64,000 nt of DNA, from the NCBI GenBank assembly GCA_054600435.1, contig BAAIJX010000019.1:62001-126000 (forward strand). Reading direction: 5' to 3'. The notes under the pieces are model-generated. The model was not told the DNA's origin and made no database searches. It saw only the letters and a list, made by a program, of their open reading frames with translations. Shown here in pieces: positions 26,456 to 43,179 of this stretch. How positions within the stretch are numbered: position 1 is the stretch's first letter; every line of letters begins with the position of its first letter. The translations under genes and the position numbers were made by a program. The stretch comes from Neophaeotheca triangularis (taxonomy: Eukaryota).

Positions 26456-29400
26456 ATGGACAAAAATCGGTAGGCCACAAAAGCCGCAGCCTTTTGTATG
26501 CAAGGCAACGGCTACCCACAGCAAAGGAGATCGTCTCGGCAAACGATTTACCTTTGCATGAGCAAGCGTCTAGCTTCAACACTGACGATTTGCTGCTCTT
26601 CCTCCCAACTGACGCCCCCCTACTGTGTCTAGCGACGAGATCGACTAACATCGAGAAAAGGCCAGCTGGAATCTTCTTGAAAGCCCAGGGAATACGCAGG
26701 ATGACGCTTGAGGAAACCCTCCCCCCGGAGGCGGAGCCAGAGTCGAAACCGTTTGACGGCGACGACGATGGGGACGGCGAGTTCGGTCTACCAATCAGCT
26801 CACATGCCGGCATCGAGCAGAGACGTAACCAAAAAGCACTCTTCGACGAATGGCTTATGGACGATGCTGCGCAAGAAGCAGCAAAACCCAGGTCCAAGGA
26901 CGGCACGGTCAAGGAGGCCGCAGATGAAGTCATGTCGATACGCTCTCTCATGTCTAGGCAAACACCTGACAAAATCGTCAAGAACCCACGTGAATATCAG
27001 ATCGAGCTATTTGAGCGCGCCAAGCAACAGAACACGATTGCAGTCCTCGACACTGGATCTGGCAAGACCTTGATAGCTGTCCTCTTGCTTCGCCATACGA
27101 TTGACCAAGAACTCGAGAACCGTGCTGCTGGCATGCCTCCTCGGATATCATTTTTCCTCGTCGATTCAGTCACGCTGGTGTTTCAGCAATTTTCTGTTCT
27201 TGAACACAATCTCGATCACAAAGTGGCCCGGTTTTGTGGCGCAATGGGAGCTGATCTCTGGCATCCTCAAATCTGGAAGCAACACTTCTCCGAAAACAAA
27301 GTCATCGTGTGCACGGCGGATGTGCTGCTACAATGTCTGATGCACAGCTTCATCAGAATCCGGCAGATCAATCTGCTCATCTTCGATGAGGCTCATCACG
27401 CGAAAAAGAACCACTCCTACGCGAGAGTCATCAAAGACTACTATTTGGACGAGCCCGAGAAATCTCTGCGGCCGAGAGTCTTCGGCATGACAGCCAGTCC
27501 AGTCGATGCGAAGACAGATGCGGTGCAGGCGGCACACGAACTGGAGACGTTGCTTCATTCGCGGATTGCCACAACCACTGGTTTAAGTTTCCAAGAAGCG
27601 GTCAAGAGACCGAGCGAGGCAGTCTTGCGCTACGCACCATTGAAAGCACCCTTTGAAACGTCCTTCCTCCGGGACGTCAAGACACGTTGGCCAAACGTCA
27701 TCATATACAAAGATCTCTACGAGCGTTGCGAGTCCATCGCGTCTCATCTCGGCCGCTGGTGTGCTGATCAGTATCTTCTCCGCGCGCTGTCTGAACAGAA
27801 GCTTAGGAAGTTCGTGTCCAGAACGGAGAGGGCCTTCAACTCGCGCAAGATTGCTCGGCCCATCGGAGAGTTGGATGATGCGGTGGCAGAGCTGCAAGAA
27901 GCGTCAAAGTACGTCGAGCAGCAGAGTCAAGAGCGGAGCTTTCAAATGGAGGAGAGTGATTTGAGCTCAAAGGTACAAGAGCTTCGCACTTGGCTGAAAT
28001 GGCAATTTGAACGCCCATCAAACCACAGATGCATCATCTTCGTGGAGAGGAGGCATACTGCCCATCTCCTGAATAAGCTGTTCAACAAGATTGGCACGCA
28101 GCACATGCGATGCGATGCTCTCATCGGTGCCAATCAAGCGGACCTCGACTCGGACAACTTCAGCTTTCGGCAGCAAGTCATGACTTTGATCAAGTTCCGC
28201 AAAGGAGAGACCAACGTTCTTTTCTCGACGTCTGTGGCTGAAGAAGGTCTTGACGTTCCCGACTGCAATCTTGTCGTCCGGTTCGACATGTACAGGACCA
28301 TGATTCAATATGTACAGTCGCGGGGTCGAGCTCGGCACCAGAACAGCAAATTCATCCACATGATTGAGAACGGCAACCCGGTTCATACCGCGCTGTTGCA
28401 CGATGTCCGATTCCAGGAGGCTACCATGCGGCGCTTTTGTCAAGCCTTGCCGGATGACCGCAGGCTTATCGGTAACGAGGACAGTCTCGACGAGCTACTG
28501 ACGAAGGAGAAGAACATGCGGGTCTATATCGAGAAAAGTACAGGCGCCAAGCTTACATACGGTAACTCTCTGGCTTACCTAGCAAACTTTGTCAGCGCGA
28601 TCCCTACGCCTAGTGAAGAAGAGCCAATGCATCCTACCTACGTCGTTTCGTATCAAGGAGCCAAGTATATCGCGGAGGTTATCTTGCCATCTAGCGCGCC
28701 CATCAGATCTGCGATTGGTCGAGTCTGTCAGAAAAAAGCGTTGGCCAAGCGATCCGCAGCTTTCGAGGCCTGCATCGAGTTGCGAAAGGCACAGTATCTC
28801 GACGAGAACCTGATGCCCACTTATCAGAAACGGCTGCCCGCGCTTCGAAACGCTATGCTTGCTGTTGATGACAAGAAGAATACCCAGTATACAATGCGGA
28901 CGAAGCCGAAAATTTGGGCAGAGGGTAGAGCGGGCGAGCAGTCTTTACCGACAAGACTATTCGTCACGGTCATCGATTTCCCAGAGGGTCTCGAGAGGAA
29001 GCACCAGCCGCTCGCACTTCTGACAAGGGACAGGATGCCGGACTATCCTACCTTCTCCCTCTTGCTGAATGATGGTCGTGCCACCGCCGTCTCGACTACA
29101 ACTTTCGAAAAGCCGATTCAGGTCACTGAGGTGCTTCTGAAACAAGTCACCGAGTTCACCTACAGGGTCTATCAGGACGTTTTCAGCAAAAAATACGCGA
29201 AAGAGCCGACCCACGTATCATACTGGATCGCCCCGGCCGTCGCGGCGACAGACGGCAAGGCAAGTGCTCCACACGAAGTGCTCGATCACACCCTAATGGA
29301 GGAGGTCTTGCGGCTGGAAGAATACAAGTGGACCGCCGAAACACCGGAGGAAGACCTAATCAACAAATTCCTGGTTGACAAGTGGGATGGGGCGCGAAAA

Positions 29401-31302
29401 TTCTACAGCACAGGCATAGATCCTAAGCTGACCCAACGGAGCCCCATTCCGGAAGGCGTCGCGAAATCCAAATGGAGCGGTACCATCCTTGACTACAGCG
29501 TCAGCCTGTTCAAGGAGTCGAGAAAGAAAGCGACCTGGGCCGACAACCAGCCGGTGATGATTGCGGAGAAAGTCTTGTTTCGCCGCAACATGCTTGCTCC
29601 ACCGGAAGCAAAGGAAGTAAACCAGCGGACCAAGGCATACCTATGTCCTGACCCGCTGCTCATCTCTGTTCTGCCGCCTGCAGTTGCGGTGAGCTGCTTT
29701 ACCTTCCCGGCCATCATCTACAGACTCGAATCGTACATGATTGCGCAAGAAGCATGCAGCCTCGTTGGCGTCCATTGTATGACCGATGTTGCGCTCGAGG
29801 CGGTCACTCAGGACTCCCAAAACAGCGGAGATCACGGCACCATCGAGCGCATCAACTTTCAACATGGTATGGGCAAGAACTATGAGCGGCTCGAGTTTAT
29901 GGGCGACTGCTTCCTGAAGACGGCCACAACAATCGCCGTTTTCGTGCAAAACCCGGAAGATGACGAGTTTGCATACCATTGTTCCCGCATGGCTATGTTG
30001 TGCAATAAGAACCTCTTCGAGAACGCTTTGGAGATCAAGCTGTACGAATACATCCGGACGATGGCCTTCTCTCGACGCCTGTGGTACCCTGAGGGCCTGA
30101 TGCTGCTCGAGGGCAAAGGCGTCAAACTGAAGGAGGAGCCCAAACTCACTAGCAGTGAGGTAGTGAAGCATCCTCTAGGTCAGAAGACCATTGCCGATGT
30201 GTGCGAGGCCTTGATTGGGGCCGCGTACATTGCGCACAACAACCAAGAAAAGTGGACGCCAGAAACAATGAACGAAGCCGTGCGCGTTGTTACCAAGCTC
30301 GTCAATAACCCCGACCATACTTTCCAGAAGTGGTCCGATTACCGTGCGGCCTACACACTACCAACTTACCAGACTGGCGACGTCTCCGCCTCGCAGCGCG
30401 ATATGGCCGAGAAAGTGGAACTTGAGCATGGCTACAAGTTCAACTACCCCCGCCTCCTGCGCTCCGCCTTTGTGCACCCCTCGCAACCTTTCATTTGGGA
30501 AAAGGTCCCCTCATACCAGCGTCTGGAATTCCTCGGAGATGCTCTGCTCGACATGGCTAGCATCTCCTACCTATTCTACCGCTTTCCGGATAAGGACCCA
30601 CAATGGCTCACAGAGCACAAAATGGCCATGGTCTCGAACAAGTTCCTCGGCTGCGTCTGCGTGACCCTCGGCTTCCACCGTCACCTCCGCTATTCCTCGT
30701 CAATCCTCGAGCACCAAATCCGCGAATATGCCTCCGAACTGCTAGAAGCTAAACGCACAGCGGGCGAAGACGCTCGGGATTACTGGACCACGGTGTCAGA
30801 CCCTCCGAAATGCCTCCCCGACATCGTCGAAGCCTACGCGGGCGCCATCTTCATCGACTCGGACTTTGACTACGGCGTCGTCCAGGACTTCTTCAACCAG
30901 CACATCGTCTACTTCTTCGAGGACATGAGTCTATACGATGCCTTCGCCAACAACCACCCTTGCACACATTTGCACAATTTGCTGCAAACCACCTACGCGT
31001 GCCAGCAGTACCGGCTTTTGGCGAAGGAAATCCCTGCAGACGACCCGGTCAATGGGAAGAGCCTGGTTGTCGCAGCGGTCATGGTCCATAAGACTATCGT
31101 GGCCAGTTCGCGAGGGAAAAGTGGAAGGTATGCGAGACTCAGGGCCGCGCAGCAGGCGAATGAGATGATTGAGGGCTTGGCGCCTTTTGAGTTTCGTGCG
31201 AAGTTTGGATGTGATTGCTCGGGCGAGGGGGCGGTGGATGGGGAGGTGGAGAAAGCGGCCAAGGGACTGGCTGAGGGTATGAGTGTTCTCGGATTGGGGT
31301 AA
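26456..31302 (+). CDS. DCL1: Dicer-like protein 1 (DExH helicase, dimerisation domain, PAZ-like region, two RNase III domains, dsRBD); proposed exons 26456-26469 and 26661-31302, alternative start ATG 26701
   Basis: PREYQ, LDTGSGKT, LIFDEAHH, TSVAEEGLDVPDCN, QSRGRAR; RNase III signatures ERLEFMGDCFL and QRLEFLGDALL. Confidence 0.93.
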
Positions 31303-31889
31303 GCGTTGCTTGAGCATGATGGCAGAATGGCTGTTTGCTCGCGACATGAAGGAAATGATGGGCGAGATTACGATTGACGAACCAACGAAGAAAAGCTGCT
31401 GTCTCGCGATAACGGTAGCTGTCAAAATGCGTTCTGCTTAGCTCGGGAGATAGACGACAAAACTTTGAACACCGCCCTTTCCCTAGCACGCAAGTAATCA
31501 CCTATCATCAGGATGGCATGTCCGAGACCTGTCAGGCGTCAAGGCGCTTGAAGAGGCACCACGCCGCCATGCGTTAGGCTATTCCCGTACAAAAATCTTT
31601 CTTGTTACCTCGGCATTGAACTGCCTCGTTACCTAGATACCAACGTTGCTCGTGTATATAACGTTTTGCAGAGGGGTACTATACTTTTCTCGCAAGAAGC
31701 CAATGAAACGTGAGAATCCACTGGATGTTCAAATCAAAGGGTTTCGAGAAGTGAGGTTGGTTGAAGTCGGCTCCCGGGCGGTCGTTTCGGCAATCAGCTA
31801 GTTAATGTCCACGTGATGTCGTGGCTGTGACGCGTGTCTTACTAAGCGCGTCACCTGCCTCAGGTCTCTACATTACCTCCTTACCTACT

Positions 31890-34376
31890 AGTAAACCTCC
31901 ACCATCCTCTCATCTTAGCATAACATCAACATCCCCGAGTAGCTTAGCTATTCAAGCGCCTTTTATCACGCTTCTACTCTTTACCATACCAGCAGACATC
32001 TACACCTACACACTCACTAAACCACCACCAAACGTCGCGTAACTGGAACCACCACGAAACCAACAAGCCCACAACCCACGCGTCCTTTCAACATCCACCA
32101 CAAGCATATACCCTCCCCACAGTCACGAGACCGCCATCATTCGACTAGCCTCGCGCCGGTTGGATTCAGACCACCTGGTCTCGCTCCCGCGTGCAGCAAC
32201 AGTCGCCAACCTACTGCGTCAGCGCCGAGCGACGATTCTCACCAGCCTACGCATACGGGAAACGCGCTGTCGCACAACAAATGCACGCCGGGGGGATGGC
32301 ACTCGGAACTTAACCCTAAGAAGTTTCCTCGGTCTCCTTTTGCTACAAAACAGCAAAAGACGAAAGCCTCGCGGTGCTCTACTTTTCCCAATGAGAGCAA
32401 GCCACCGGCTCCGTGATGAGCTTCCCCAATTCTGACGTGTGGACGCTGGAGCTTGAAAAGGCCCTGGTGAATGCTCTGATGTAGGAGGGGAAGGGAAAGC
32501 GGGGCTGGTTCTGGTCCGGTGCCTATTCAATGGGCAGTAATACAGCGGCCTCATGCGTCGGTTTGGTAAGACCTCTCAGAGAGGCGCGCGTCGAGTGCCG
32601 CTGGCTGGACTTGTGCTTCTGATCATCGAGGGACAGCTTTAGCGGTAGTGGTGTTGGACGTGAGACGGGAGAGAGGGGGTGAGGGGTGTCGGGCAGACCT
32701 AGTTCGGGTCTTGCTCTTAGGGTCTTCAACAAGCTGGTCGGCGGGCGGGGAAGGTGAGGTTGATGCTTTGGAGGTTGCCATGCTGGGTCTCGCGCGTGTT
32801 GGAGCTGAGTATGCGTCGACTTCTGCATCAGCACCTTAAGTGGTGTCTGTTGAGTACCGGCGACCTTGACTTGGTTGCTGGATTGAGAAAACTACAGGCA
32901 GAGCACGACATTATCAGCAATGATCTTGGCCTACAAACAGGCTGCGCGGGTCGGGTTGCTTCATCTCTGGCCTTGAATGCCACACCTGCCAGCACGATGC
33001 ACAGCATCTAGCGGGGTGGTCAAGTCTACCCACAGAAGCAACCCATTCGTGCGGTCGAACAGGCATGTCGTACGCTCCAGCCACCTGTCGTCTCTCTTGT
33101 CCGACGGCTTTGTCACTGGCTACCGGTGCTCGCAGGTGTAGCAAGTCGCCGTAGATCCTCTCATCCCAACCATGGCGCGCGAACCCAGAGCGAACAACAG
33201 CTTCCTCAGCGTCGCCTACCCGACAAACCCGACCTTGTCCCCAGCGAAGACGTCCTGTACACCTCTTTAACCCGCGTATCGGCAGCACGTACGCCAACCA
33301 CTCTCCAACCCATCCACCACTCCAACGGCCCACCATGAAGCCCGCGCTACAGCACCAGCTACCAGCGCGGTTGCAGTCCGCTGCATTGTCCGATCAGCCG
33401 CGTCAATCATCTCCTCATGCTGCAGAGAATGGGTCGATCCGATGAGCGCCGAAATATCCAACAACGCCCAGCCGCCGTCGACTCTTCGTTGACTCAGCAG
33501 CATGGACCCCACGAGCAATTCAGTGGGAAGCAAGCGGTTTTTGCAGATGTGCTTTGTCCGTTTGAAACTGCCTCTCGGAGTTCACATCTCGCTCGCGGCG
33601 CCTTCCGGGCGTCGTGGCTTGGGGTAAGAACGAAGAGATGGAATCAAAGACTGTCTCTGAGGTGGAGTGCTTTCTGCACAAGGAGAGGCGATCTTCCTGC
33701 TCAGCAGGGCTTGGGATGTGGGAGCTTTTGTTGGTGGAGTGGTGCGTACCAAGGAAACGACTGGGTGGTTTAAGTGGTGCTGCGTTAGGTTGTAGGTGGA
33801 AGACGCTAGGTTGCTAAGATTGAGTGCTGGATGAGAGGCGGGATGGAGATGCTGTGTTTACTGTGGCTCTTCGGAAACTCGAGATTGGGCTTGTTGCCTT
33901 TCTAGCGTGTTGAAGTGGTGCTTGAGGGTCTACGGAAGGCATGTTATCGGATTTGACGGGACGTCTTGAGTGGCTTGGACGAGTGGACTCTCAATTCGGC
34001 TGCTTTGGCGGCCGCAGGCCGACGGGCAGTGCCTCGGGGACTCTGGGTAAACAGCTGCAAAGCGCGGGACCTCTCTCGCGTGAGGATCAAAGCTTTGGCT
34101 TGTCTGCGCTGCGCATTTGCCAGTTGATCTGGAGTACTGCTCAGACGCCTGCGGATCCAAGCCAACCTATGAAGAGAACGTGTCCTACTCGCAAGGACGA
34201 GGCGCATCTGCTCTGAATCTGGTGCTGGAAGTGGGCCCAAAAGCTACACAGACGCCGCCGGTGAATTGCAAGCTTGATCGAAAGGGGAAGAGGGATCGCA
34301 TTGAGCGCCAGGGCGCTTTCGCCGCCTTCTCGAATCCTGCAAAGGGGCCGGGTTGGCGGCTATTTTACTTTTTTCT
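31890..34376 (+). ncRNA. TER: Putative telomerase RNA (TER), ~2.5 kb; 5' end approximate
   Basis: No credible ORF; template TAACCCTAA at 32311-32319; nested long-range helices; terminal GCCGCC/GGCGGC stem; U-rich tract, then ATAAGT (34377), GCTAAC (34416) and CAG (34430-34432), matching the 3'-end architecture known for Pezizomycotina telomerase RNAs. Confidence 0.88.
32311..32319 (+). other. Telomerase template UAACCCUAA (specifies TTAGGG)
   Basis: 1.5 copies of the complement of TTAGGG inside the structured non-coding locus. Confidence 0.85.
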
Positions 34377-34432
34377 ATAAGTCTCCCACTCCTCCCAAAA
34401 TGTGGGAAAGCCTCTGCTAACTACCACCGCAG
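34377..34432 (+). other. Terminal non-canonical intron (AUAAGU 5' splice site) defining the TER 3' end
   Basis: ATAAGT...GCTAAC...CAG, 56 nt, similar in size to the short introns of this window. Confidence 0.85.
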
Positions 34433-34459
34433 GACCGCACCCAGCTTTCAGTCACGCAC

Positions 34460-34921
34460 TCAGGCCATTTCCACAGCGGCCCTCCAGCACATTCTCGTAC
34501 ACAGTCCCACGCCCACGAAGTAGGCCGCGCTCCTCAAGAAGCTCCAAGTCTTACTCTCCGTCACAATATAATTGGCAACATACACAAGCCTACTGGCCAT
34601 CCATGCCGCAGCAAAAGTCTGCACCCCCAGGTCGCGTCCAGTCTGCTTTTCCGCCAGCAAACCCGCAATCACGGAGACGTAGAAGAAAGGCATGTTCTCC
34701 ATGCAGTTGCGGTGGCAGGCCTCGGCGCGCTCATACTTGGCGAAGGCGGAGGGCGAAAGGGTTGATTTTGTTCGGCTGGCAGCGCTGCTGCCGTGTGGGT
34801 TCGAATTGTCGAGTTTGGAGATGTCGCCGTTGGTTGCGATGGTCGCGGCGTAGGAGTGGGGGAGCACGGAGAGGATGTAGTAGGCGGGGAGCGAGAGGAG
34901 GGCGTAATTGTAGGACGACAT
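34460..34921 (-). CDS. MAPEG-family small membrane protein
   Basis: 153 aa with several hydrophobic helices; DNSNP, RAEACHRNCMENMP, SRLVY and RSAAYF motifs. Confidence 0.82.
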   Translation of the reverse strand: MSSYNYALLSLPAYYILSVLPHSYAATIATNGDISKLDNSNPHGSSAASRTKSTLSPSAFAKYERAEACHRNCMENMPFFYVSVIAGLLAEKQTGRDLGVQTFAAAWMASRLVYVANYIVTESKTWSFLRSAAYFVGVGLCTRMCWRAAVEMA

Positions 34922-35318
34922 TGTGGGTTTGAGTTGGGTGGGTTGGGGTTCTGGGGGATTGTATCGGGTCGTGTTTGGTTTTGGGAGGTTGTTTGAATAA
35001 GAATAGGAGGTGGGACTTGCACGGTAGTTAGTTAACTATCTATCGCTCTGGGAATTGGAAGTCGCTAACAACGTTGGGTGACGTTGGTCCTCGGCAAAGG
35101 TCCAAATTGGAAGCTTTGGATCGAGCTTGAAACTTTGATTGCCCTCGTTCTTCTCTTCTCTTCTCTTCTCCAATGATAATGGCGAAATCCTGTCAAAATG
35201 AGATAGTCGGAGTCTCTCATCTCTCACCTATCAAGTTTGCTTGGCCCAGCAGGTCTTGTCCAATGATGATCTCCACTCCTTATCCATGAGGTGCAGGTGG
35301 TCAGTCATGTCATGCTGC

Positions 35319-35821: not shown

Positions 35822-37714
35822 ATGCTCGCCCTTTTCGTAGCCCTCCTCGCTTCCGTTCTGTTGACCCCCGAGGCTTCTGCGCAAGACGCTGACGAGACCA
35901 TTTGGGCCTCTGTCATCTTTTCACGTACGGGCGAGCGCACGCCATTGACCTTGGGGACCGTCACGACCCAGCTCACATCGCTGGGAGCGCAGCAGCAATA
36001 CCAGACGGGCGATTTCTTTCGCCAACGCTACTTTAGAAGAAGCAGCGACGAGGGTGGTGAAGGCAATGCCTCCGCAGTCGCTCCTTTCTACGGCTTGAAC
36101 GAGGATAAATACGATCCCCTACAATCTTATATCCTGGCGGTCGACAAGACCTATACTGTCAGCAGCGCTCAGGCGTTTATGCAGGCCTTTTATCCACCCC
36201 ATACGCTCGATGAATCACTGGCGGCTGCGCTTGATCCAACAAGTGTGCTGGCTAACGGGACATATATTCCAAATCCTTTGGATGGATACCAATACCCTCA
36301 CATCCAAGCGGTAGATAGTCTGTCTCCAGAATATGTTTACTTGGAGGGCTGGCTTCACTGCACCAATTGGTACTCGGCAGCGTCCCAGTACCTCCGGACC
36401 AATGACTTCTCGCGCATAGAGAATAGCAGCAAATACCTATACGACGCCGTCGGTCCCCCACTCCTCGAACATGTTCTCTCCGAAAACAGCACCTGGAGCT
36501 ACGGCAACGCGTACCAAATCTACGACTACCTCAACTACCAAAACATGCACAACGACACAGTCGAATCCATGTTCGAGTCCAACGACTTCGACACCGACGA
36601 CGAACCAGGCGTCCTGTCCCAACTCCGCTGGCTCGCAGACCTGCACCAAGACAACCTGTTTGCCAAAAACAACGACTCCCTGGTCAACGCCAACGCCGCC
36701 GTCCGCTCCATGTCCACAATAGCAGGAAACACTCTCGCGGCCAAAATGCTCAACCAACTCCAACTCTCCATCAGCTCGCGCGGAACCCAATACAAACTCT
36801 CCCTCCTAACCGGCGAGCACGAACCCCTAATCTCCCTCTTCGCGCTCCTCGACCTCCCCCGCTTAAACTCCGACTTCCGCGGCCTGCCCTCCTTCGCCTC
36901 CGCCGCCGTCTTTGAACTCTACTCCCCAGGCGCTCCCCCCAACAACGCCTCCTCTTCCCCCGCCGACCTCTTCCCAGAGCAAGACGACTTGTGGGTCCGT
37001 TTCCTTTTCCGCAACGGCTCGCAAGGCTCTTTACAAGCTTTCCCCATTTTCGGGCGGGGGCCGAGCCAGACGGAAATGCGATGGTCGGATTTCGAAAAAG
37101 AAATGGCGGCCATTATGCTCGATGAGGTGGGCGAGTGGTGCAGGCTTTGCGGCGGGAGCGAGAGGCAGGTTTTCTGCCCCGGGCTCGATTCCAGCGGGGG
37201 GAGTAGTCGGTTTGGCGGCGGGAGCGGGCGGTTCGGCAGTGGGGATGGGGATGGGAATGGTAGTGGCGGTGGAGGAGGTCTGAGCCCGGCTGTCGGAGGT
37301 GTCGTGGGCGCGATTGTGGCTTTGCTCATTGCCGGCTTGGTCTTCGCGGGCTTGTGGCTGATTGGCGGCTTTAGATTTCGGAGGACGGAGGAGGCACGGG
37401 GGAGACGGGAGCCTGGTGGCGGCGGGTCTACTATCGCTGGTGGTGGTTTCAAAGGCAGTGCCAAGTTGGCTTCGGACCCGGATTTGGTGCGTGCGGGCAA
37501 GGGCGGCGCGGGCGCCAGTGTCGTCCGCGGTGCCGCCAATGGAGAGGTTTCGGAGCACGAGAGGATTAATAGCTGGGAGTTGAAGAAGGATGTTGCTGGT
37601 GTGGAGAGGCCTGGGCAGGCTGCGGCGCGCAGGCCGAGCTGGGACGAGGAGGATGATGGTGATGATCGCATTGATCCTTTTAGGGATCCGACTAGGCCTG
37701 ATGAGAGGGTTTGA
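35822..37714 (+). CDS. Histidine-phosphatase (clade 2, acid-phosphatase-like) type I membrane protein, probably lacking the catalytic His
   Basis: Signal peptide; RTGERTP where RHGxRxP is expected; LTSLGAQQ; Cys pair near the domain end; TM helix VGGVVGAIVALLIAGLVFAGLWLIG; cytoplasmic tail with GGFKGSAKLASDPD. Confidence 0.8.
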   Translation: MLALFVALLASVLLTPEASAQDADETIWASVIFSRTGERTPLTLGTVTTQLTSLGAQQQYQTGDFFRQRYFRRSSDEGGEGNASAVAPFYGLNEDKYDPLQSYILAVDKTYTVSSAQAFMQAFYPPHTLDESLAAALDPTSVLANGTYIPNPLDGYQYPHIQAVDSLSPEYVYLEGWLHCTNWYSAASQYLRTNDFSRIENSSKYLYDAVGPPLLEHVLSENSTWSYGNAYQIYDYLNYQNMHNDTVESMFESNDFDTDDEPGVLSQLRWLADLHQDNLFAKNNDSLVNANAAVRSMSTIAGNTLAAKMLNQLQLSISSRGTQYKLSLLTGEHEPLISLFALLDLPRLNSDFRGLPSFASAAVFELYSPGAPPNNASSSPADLFPEQDDLWVRFLFRNGSQGSLQAFPIFGRGPSQTEMRWSDFEKEMAAIMLDEVGEWCRLCGGSERQVFCPGLDSSGGSSRFGGGSGRFGSGDGDGNGSGGGGGLSPAVGGVVGAIVALLIAGLVFAGLWLIGGFRFRRTEEARGRREPGGGGSTIAGGGFKGSAKLASDPDLVRAGKGGAGASVVRGAANGEVSEHERINSWELKKDVAGVERPGQAAARRPSWDEEDDGDDRIDPFRDPTRPDERV

Positions 37715-42449: not shown

Positions 42450-43179
42450 GACGCGGGCTTTAAGCTGAGCAAGAGGAATTTGAGCGTGAGAATGGGCAGG
42501 GTTCGAGCATGCTACCCGCCGCGACGCGATTACGAAAGAGAAAAACGACTGCAAGGCGTCCACGGCGTATTCCTTCTATACAGCGACATTCAGTCAGCGA
42601 GTGCCAGCTCTTTCTGCAAAAGGGGCGATGGGCGATACCCACAAGGGCGTTTCGTGTTTTACAATAGTTGCAATAGGCCAAAATCACATCCAACTCACAT
42701 CCACATCCATGACCGTATCCATAAGCACATCTCAACAACTAACACCCAACCAACCCAAACCTAAGCCCAAGACAAGAACTAACCAAACCCAACCAAACCC
42801 ACAACCACTAGCCCCTACTAACCGACCTCCACGCAACCTCATAACCCTAAGAAAACAGCAGACAACCTACCCCCTAAGCCCGGAAAAAAACTACTTTACA
42901 TACATACAGGAATACAAAAATATATAAAAACACACACTAAAATCACATATACACGTCCCATCACATCACGCTACGCCAACTCCACGGCCCGAGCGACTCT
43001 GTCTAAACAAGCTAAGCCAAGGTAGCTACTAAACACCCACCGCCACCATGACTCCTAGGGGCGAGCTGCGTCGAGGCCAGCAGCGCCCGGGATGGGGAGA
43101 AGCGGTGTTGTATATAGTGGGCAAGGAAGCCTGCGATGCGAGCGCCGGGAGAGAGCGGTGATGGCGGGGAGGTTTTTGG

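Follow-up and report, generated by a model that had tools for sequence, protein, structure and literature searches.

It was concluded that nucleotides 31890 to 34376 on the forward (+) strand of a 64-kb stretch of Neophaeotheca triangularis DNA (contig BAAIJX010000019.1, positions 62,001 to 126,000; the whole stretch is referred to as the window) are most probably the telomerase RNA (TER) gene of a filamentous ascomycete (Pezizomycotina). The probability of this assignment was estimated from the sequence at about 0.93. The same identity had been suggested in an earlier note on this DNA, and it was supported here by the collinear arrangement of the modules on the + strand, by profiles of related loci that each matched once, and by covariation of helices. 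Covariation across the relatives was found for P5 and P6, for the helices of the pseudoknot and for the terminal hairpin. The TERs of filamentous ascomycetes are a well-known kind of RNA that tends to be missed by routine annotation. The coordinates of all features are collected in Table 1.

Related loci and sequence profiles

The related loci were collected with a search pattern of 30 nt spanning P6 and P6.1 of the three-way junction, in which those positions were left free where the window departs from the Rfam consensus. The pattern occurred once in the window and in none of 100 shuffles, and at least 116 loci carrying it were found in metagenome contigs; all locus counts given here cover only the matches listed. 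When the distances were counted from the junction, TAACCCTAA was located at -1063 to -1869 in 37 of the 38 loci with at least 2000 nt of upstream sequence. The shorter AACCCTAA was present in all 38, the single locus that lacked TAACCCTAA having AAACCCTAA. As a control, 3 copies of TAACCCTAA were counted in 348 kb of the - strands of the loci. On the downstream side, ATAAGT was observed at +188 to +428 in 46 of the 50 loci with at least 500 nt of sequence, and the full 3' cassette in 45 of them. The offsets measured in the window (template at -1755, U-tract at -531 and ATAAGT at +311) all fell within the ranges of the loci.

Further, hidden Markov models (HMMs) of the pseudoknot (62 sequences), the template region (40) and the 3' cassette (50) were built from the unique locus sequences, the window being excluded. 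Each of the three HMMs gave one match in the 64 kb; all three lay on the + strand and followed the expected order: the template profile at 32283-32408 (E 1.6e-8), the pseudoknot profile at 33248-33879 (E 8.8e-57, 185.6 bits) and the 3' cassette profile at 34321-34434 (E 8.9e-10). These matches bear on the proposal that the stretch encodes some other long non-coding RNA, or is simply intergenic DNA, and that its telomerase-like motifs arose by chance. Such an explanation was considered highly improbable, because each of the three independent profiles had a single match, with order and strand as expected and in one case at E 8.8e-57, because the helices covary across relatives with a spacing inside the family range, and because 11 of 18 related loci reach the gathering score of the Rfam family RF02462, i.e. 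are TER genes. What can be said for it is that TAACCCTAA did occur a second time by chance, at 42842, and that the transcript is a predicted one.

Template region

The 9-mer pointed out in the earlier note was confirmed as TAACCCTAA on the + strand at 32311-32319. Two copies of it were found in the window, where 0.17 were expected, and none of 100 shuffles reached two. The 9-nt template of Neurospora crassa is identical to that of the window and is reported to direct TTAGGG synthesis both in vivo and in vitro (PMC3592445). A short template of this kind, which is complementary to 1.5 TTAGGG repeats, is characteristic of Pezizomycotina TERs. The flanks of the template, CGGAACT[TAACCCTAA]G...TCGGT, were common to the window and most relatives. 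A candidate 3' strand of a template boundary helix was predicted just upstream; in the minimum-energy fold it paired with 32133-32138 and 32184-32195, and it resembled ...GGGGAGGATGG... in the relatives. A 7-bp hairpin flanking the template (32305-32311 with 32321-32327 in the minimum-energy fold) was rejected, since the sequences of the relatives gave it no support.

The other copy of TAACCCTAA, at 42842-42850, lay in a G-poor, C/A-rich tract and was matched by none of the family profiles. As a template candidate it was taken as a chance occurrence, there being no family profile match at that place.

A weak match to sR35, an archaeal C/D-box small nucleolar RNA model, was recorded at 32387-32437 (+) with 17.7 bits against a gathering score of 60. 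It contained UGAUGA and CUGA boxes 13 nt apart, and the stretch was not conserved in the contig of a relative. The match is probably due to chance.

Pseudoknot domain and three-way junction

The pairing in the pseudoknot domain was counted over 63 sequences. In the inner helix 92.6% of the cells were paired, as compared with 43-58% when the strands were slid, and swaps of C:G to U:A were observed at three positions. The outer CUUUG/CAAAG helix was paired in 82% of the cells with one covarying position, its three outermost pairs being poorly aligned. At the level of secondary structure, which this comparison covered, the U-tract and the conserved helices lie downstream of the template, as is the case in Pezizomycotina TERs.

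The junction, which resembles the CR4/5 element, was aligned over 67 rows, comprising the window and 66 of the 80 unique loci. The remaining 14 were near-duplicates dropped by eye (L025, L034, L039, L043, L052, L055, L060, L061, L065, L083, L084, L088, L108 and L114). Taken together, P5, P6 and P6.1 were paired in 88.8% of the cells, and in 27-44% when the 3' partners were slid. Changes on both sides of the helix were found for all 8 P5 pairs and for 2 P6 pairs (UA 41 / CG 26 and CG 40 / AU 26), and the covariation score of the junction was reached by none of 500 shuffles. The 3' strand of P6.1, which had been left free in the search pattern, paired in at least 66 of the 67 rows at every position. 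The 4-nt P6.1 loop was shared by 32 of the 67 aligned sequences, all of them with a P6 of the GACCUC or GACCUU type. Additionally, the three-way junction formed in the minimum-energy fold of 31890-34377. As read from the alignment, the junction consists of P5, of a P6 that is short, and of a P6.1 that has 4 bp and a conserved U and G in its loop, which is the arrangement characteristic of Pezizomycotina TERs.

3' end and processing signals

All of the 3' elements listed in the earlier note were present, namely the stem, the U-rich tract, ATAAGT, GCTAAC (34416-34421) and CAG; ATAAGT starts at 34377, one base to the left of what a quick count would give. The combined 3' cassette pattern occurred once in 64 kb, where 0.03 occurrences were expected. 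A consensus structure folded from 53 sequences has 8 predicted pairs in the terminal hairpin, and compensatory changes were seen in all of them. The overall succession of a hairpin, a U-rich tract and then ATAAGTCTCCC...GCTAACTAC...CAG was common to the window and its relatives. The loci of the GACCCA type carried a small CCUCC...GGAGG hairpin before the 5' splice site; in the window a plain U-tract was found.

In Aspergilli the sequence CGGC3-5U7-12 is described before AUA(A/C)GU, followed by a branch site and a 3' splice site (PMC3603654). For the A. niger cassette it was reported that an A at intron position 1 keeps splicing from proceeding beyond its first step, whereby the cleavage defines the mature 3' end, and that an A-to-G change at this position gives spliced RNA with little activity (PMC4299874). 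According to a review, all known filamentous fungal TERs are processed by such spliceosomal cleavage (PMC4993307). By analogy, the transcript of the window would be cleaved by the spliceosome at its AUAAGU.

Several loci deviated at this site. In the near-identical L003 and L023 a canonical GTAAGT replaced ATAAGT at about +224 from the junction, L027 had ATACGT at +209, like A. nidulans, and no ATAAGT-type site was found in L042. The loci with GTAAGT and ATACGT suggest that the block of the second splicing step may differ between lineages.

5' end, core-enclosing helices and internal arm

A C/A-rich leader was predicted to pair with a G-rich segment downstream of the pseudoknot, forming a ladder of helices around the core. 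The interaction energy of this ladder was -88.1 kcal/mol. When the leader was replaced by its dinucleotide shuffles, -54.3 +/- 5.7 kcal/mol was obtained, and none of 100 was as good (z -5.9). The start of the ladder stayed at -421 from the template also when folding was given 650 nt of sequence upstream of the template. A similar ladder starting at -350 to -410 was predicted in all three relatives folded (L001, L043 and L027), whose leaders were unalignable to that of the window. In N. crassa the minimal core is reported to include nt 225-255, which lie about 200 nt upstream of the template (PMC3592445), and the far-upstream start of the ladder in the window and the relatives fits this finding.

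In a second strain, dense indels were observed over 31654-31872. Among the indels listed for 31872 to 34376 there were two, each an insertion of one base, located at 32637 and at 33903. The 56-kb contig of a relative was alignable from 31993 rightwards only. The ladder, the folds of the relatives and the indels between the strains are three indirect lines that agree on a 5' end at approximately 31880-31900, as modeled here; in view of the contig of the relative, the start may also lie further downstream, as far as about 32100. Of the ends given in the earlier note, 34376 (+) fits the predicted 3' end, the position just before AUAAGU. The other end, 31890, fits the structure-based limit; the predicted length, about 2.49 kb, depends on this structural placement of the 5' end near 31890. 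When the upstream region was scanned with RNAduplex, the segments compared were not told apart, hence the scan was of no use for placing the 5' end.

A CACGTG box was noticed at 31810-31815, and an inverted repeat of 8 nt containing ACGCGT was formed by GTGACGCG (31827-31834) and CGCGTCAC (31847-31854). Box and repeat lay some 40-80 nt upstream of the predicted 5' end. The elements between 31810 and 31854 are possible promoter elements.

The nested self-complementarity described earlier was borne out for the region that separates the template from the pseudoknot, and it exceeded that of shuffled sequences on the + strand only. For 32400-33340 the folding energy of the + strand was -417.4 kcal/mol (z -5.56; 0 of 20 shuffles as good), compared with -335.3 kcal/mol for the - strand (z +0.61; 15 of 20 shuffles as good). 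The GC skew along the gap between the neighbouring genes alternated from C-rich to G-rich, C-rich and G-rich again, as paired arms would produce.

Conservation between strains and relatives

The second strain and an air-metagenome contig were about 97-98% identical to the window, and inside the gene the indels listed for them were single-base ones only. On the 56-kb contig of the relative, collinear islands were aligned on the + strand at 31993-32380, 32488-32626, 33338-33454, 33523-33563 and 33634-34124, followed by the MAPEG gene. In place of the segments 32626-33338 and 34124-34650 this contig has sequence of about the same length that could not be aligned. Such a pattern, in which the core is conserved and the arms are free to change, is the one expected of a TER.

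The region between the Dicer-like and MAPEG genes measured 3.16 kb. It had been described as free of any credible open reading frame (ORF), and this description stood: the longest ATG-initiated ORF was 140 amino acids, and a Pfam search that admitted E values up to 0.1 gave no match for any of the 12 ORFs of at least 50 amino acids. A protein-coding gene whose introns were missed by the ORF listing was regarded as having hardly any likelihood. Although ORFs of up to 140 amino acids are present on both strands, none of the 12 was recognised by Pfam, the two strains differ by single-base indels at 32637 and 33903, and the conservation takes the form of short islands matching RNA helices, not reading frames.

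Pezizomycotina TERs are characterized by a stable non-coding transcript of about 1.6-2.4 kb. At this locus, the contigs of one metatranscriptome matched 32327-32474, 32478-32657 and 33484-33737 at 95% identity or more. The 3' end of the Dicer gene and the segments 31303-32326, 32658-33483 and 33738-34751 had no cover by RNA-library contigs, which is uninformative either way.

Covariance model searches and assessment of the assignment

The search with the covariance model of ascomycete TERs proposed in the earlier note gave a mixed outcome: two collinear local matches on the + strand were obtained, at 21.9 and 21.1 bits, and the gathering score of 30 bits was missed. With permissive filters over 31000-35000, RF02462 (Telomerase_Asco) matched 33534-33655 (+) with model positions 1285-1381 (21.1 bits, E 0.001) and 34038-34101 (+) with positions 1627-1690 (21.9 bits, E 5.8e-4), and no full-length alignment was produced. 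The local matches were unstable, and Rfam alone leaves the membership of the window unsettled. The gathering score is a detection threshold, not a biological feature.

When the longer related loci were scanned with Rfam, 11 of 18 reached the RF02462 gathering score, two of them over the full model with 1212.7 and 760.9 bits; therefore, the related loci are TER genes. The seven that scored below it (L001, L035, L043, L053, L064, L066 and L073) all had the P6 type of the window, GACCUC/GAGG.UC. Since the failing loci are all of this type, RF02462 performs poorly for the clade of the window, and what is observed looks like a clade-wide blind spot of RF02462 for the GACCUC-type P6.

Several points weigh against the assignment as a TER gene. 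At the gathering score Rfam, including RF02462, gave no match in the whole window, and on the shorter segment 33250-34450 the junction match was lost, only the pseudoknot being recovered at 15.5 bits (E 0.016). On 32150-32700 Rfam gave no RF02462 match to the template region; a match to a long non-coding RNA model and the weak archaeal one were obtained. The junction pattern was partly derived from the window, and the loci are not independent, as the 107 with full cover contained 80 unique junction segments. The search pattern fixed the 5' strand of P6.1 and parts of P6, hence their invariance is partly forced. The P6.1 loop has 4 nt (UUUG) and not the 5 nt of the published NUNGN. For the putative template boundary element and for the helices predicted to enclose the core, the evidence comes from folding energies and not from covariation. 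The RNA-library contigs carry no strand or end information and may contain DNA. Finally, as the analysis of this organism covered the 64-kb window, single-copy status and TTAGGG telomeres are predicted features.

Part of these points could also be explained by a decayed or redundant TER copy, either a pseudogene or a paralogue, with the working TER elsewhere in the genome. Both the Rfam scores below the threshold and the single-copy status, unproven beyond the window, would be compatible with it. However, all conserved modules are intact and collinear, the convergent MAPEG neighbour is present as in 12 relatives, and the second strain and the air-metagenome contig retain about 97-98% identity with single-base indels only, among the indels listed. 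The low Rfam scores of 7 of the 18 relatives, which share the junction type, point to the model and not to decay. A decayed or redundant copy was accordingly judged very unlikely, and the stretch was interpreted as the TER gene itself.

Neighbouring genes

The 3' splice site of the TER (34432) and the stop codon of the MAPEG gene (34460) are separated by 27 nt in a tail-to-tail orientation. The convergent pair was kept in 12 loci (L001, L005, L011, L013, L017, L027, L038, L039, L043, L057, L072 and L078), whose MAPEG proteins were 38-52% identical to that of the window. Because the two genes converge at a distance of 27 nt, the TER precursor and the MAPEG mRNA are predicted to overlap in antisense. 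On the 56-kb contig of the related organism the Dicer-like gene, aligned with 30506-31217 of the window, was located on the opposite strand, at the other side of the TER-MAPEG pair. As judged from this contig, the synteny of TER with the Dicer gene is broken by a local rearrangement, and that of TER with MAPEG is conserved. An ORF of 630 amino acids with a histidine phosphatase (branch 2) domain was found downstream of the MAPEG gene, at 35822-37714 (+).

Table 1. Positions of the predicted TER, its elements and the adjacent genes in the window
Feature	Position	Strand	Details
Predicted mature telomerase RNA	31890..34376	+	about 2.49 kb; 3' end from AUAAGU site, 5' end estimated
C/A-rich 5' leader, 5' strand of core-enclosing helix ladder	31897..32073	+	predicted to pair with 33717-33848
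Candidate template boundary helix, 3' strand (UGCACG-CCGGGGG-GAUGGC)	32282..32300	+	minimum-energy fold; ends 10 nt before template
Template 5'-UAACCCUAA-3'	32311..32319	+	exact 9-mer; predicted to specify TTAGGG repeats
Self-complementary stretch between template and pseudoknot	32400..33340	+	folding compared with shuffles
Pseudoknot-domain core	33534..33655	+	Rfam local match, loci-only profile, pair counts
Pseudoknot U-tract	33538-33542	+	
Outer pseudoknot helix (CUUUG/CAAAG)	33546-33557 with 33644-33655	+	
Inner pseudoknot helix	33571-33576 with 33635-33641	+	
G-rich 3' strand of core-enclosing ladder	33717..33848	+	minimum-energy fold of 31890-34377
Three-way junction, CR4/5-like	34061..34110	+	Rfam local match, alignment, minimum-energy fold
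P5	34061-34065 with 34106-34110	+	
P6	34068-34073 with 34082-34088	+	A34086 bulged
P6.1	34090-34093 with 34098-34101	+	junction A34089; loop UUUG
3' terminal hairpin (GCCGCC...GGCGGC, loop with CUGCAAAGG)	34321..34360	+	34321-34326 with 34355-34360
U-rich tract UAUUUUACUUUUUUCU, Sm-site-like	34361..34376	+	ends at predicted mature 3' end
Intron-like 3' processing cassette	34377..34432	+	AUAAGU 34377-34382, GCUAACU 34416-34422, CAG 34430-34432
Dicer-like gene (upstream neighbour)	26701..31302	+	helicase, Dicer dimerisation, two RNase III and double-stranded RNA-binding domains (Pfam)
MAPEG-family gene (downstream convergent neighbour)	34460..34921	-	stop codon at 34460

Proposed mechanism and significance

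By analogy with the characterized TERs, a scheme was proposed for transcription, formation of the RNA ends, spliceosomal cleavage, TERT binding and templating. RNA polymerase II would produce a precursor starting near 31890, as expected from the biology of the family. The spliceosome would then recognise AUAAGU (34377), the branch site GCUAACU and CAG, and would carry out the first splicing step only; we proposed that the second step is blocked by the A which occupies intron position 1. The mature RNA thereby released would be about 2.49 kb long, with the end of its U-rich tract at 34376, behind the terminal hairpin. The ladder between the leader and 33717-33848 would enclose a catalytic core composed of the single-stranded template UAACCCUAA and the pseudoknot domain, the arm of about 900 nt between them being dispensable. 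The separate P6/P6.1 three-way junction would provide the second TERT-binding site, and TERT would copy the template repeatedly, thereby adding TTAGGG to the chromosome ends.

The assignment gives the coordinates of the template, the pseudoknot, the CR4/5-like junction and the 3' processing signals of an essential RNA missed by gene callers and by the Rfam threshold. These coordinates open telomerase work in the organism, such as template marking, knock-down and ribonucleoprotein purification, and the at least 116 metagenome loci gathered could serve to rebuild a more sensitive model. The practical value lies in the annotation and in the blind spot of the model; the understanding of how telomerase RNA works is not changed. 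A broader proposal, that a large and deep ascomycete clade has a divergent long TER missed by Rfam together with an antisense MAPEG overlap, which possibly couples termination or expression, was considered rather unlikely.

Comparison with known telomerase RNAs

The Pezizomycotina TER family has been known since 2012 and was described in 73 species (PMC3592445), and the TER of the window may already be on record among the published species. In the searches made for later literature on TERs of Pezizomycotina or Dothideomycetes nothing was found that changes the picture; the items listed were reviews and yeast or basidiomycete studies.

The N. crassa RNA (NcrTER, 2049 nt) has the same 9-nt template, a template-pseudoknot domain and a separate P5/P6/P6.1 junction. 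It also has, as is predicted for the window, a long dispensable arm between template and pseudoknot and a far-upstream 5' segment that closes the core, and it is similar in being described without a canonical Sm site (PMC3592445). The predicted length of the window's RNA is greater, about 2.49 kb. Its P6 is GACCUC/GAGG.UC, whereas that of NcrTER is GACCCA/UGG.GUC, two distal pairs being swapped in a compensatory manner, and its P6.1 loop has 4 nt (UUUG) in place of the 5 nt (NUNGN) of NcrTER. On the sequences compared, three differences are clade-specific, namely the 4-nt P6.1 loop, the compensatory swaps in P6 and the predicted length of about 2.49 kb.

The Aspergillus TERs share with the window the GC-rich element, the U-rich tract, AUAAGU, GCUAACU and the 3' splice site (PMC3603654, PMC4299874). 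They are shorter, about 1.6-2.1 kb, and it is by analogy with them that cleavage in the window is predicted. Compared by length alone, the Mycosphaerella graminicola TER is of a similar very large size, its 2425 nt being the largest reported (PMC3592445); if the 5' end proposed here is right, the RNA of the window would slightly exceed it and no longer TER would have been recorded from a fungus. The TER1 of Schizosaccharomyces pombe likewise obtains its 3' end by the first splicing step next to a U-rich, Sm-type site (PMC4299874). Unlike the window, it has a canonical GU 5' splice site, another way of stalling the second step, and a different template and size.

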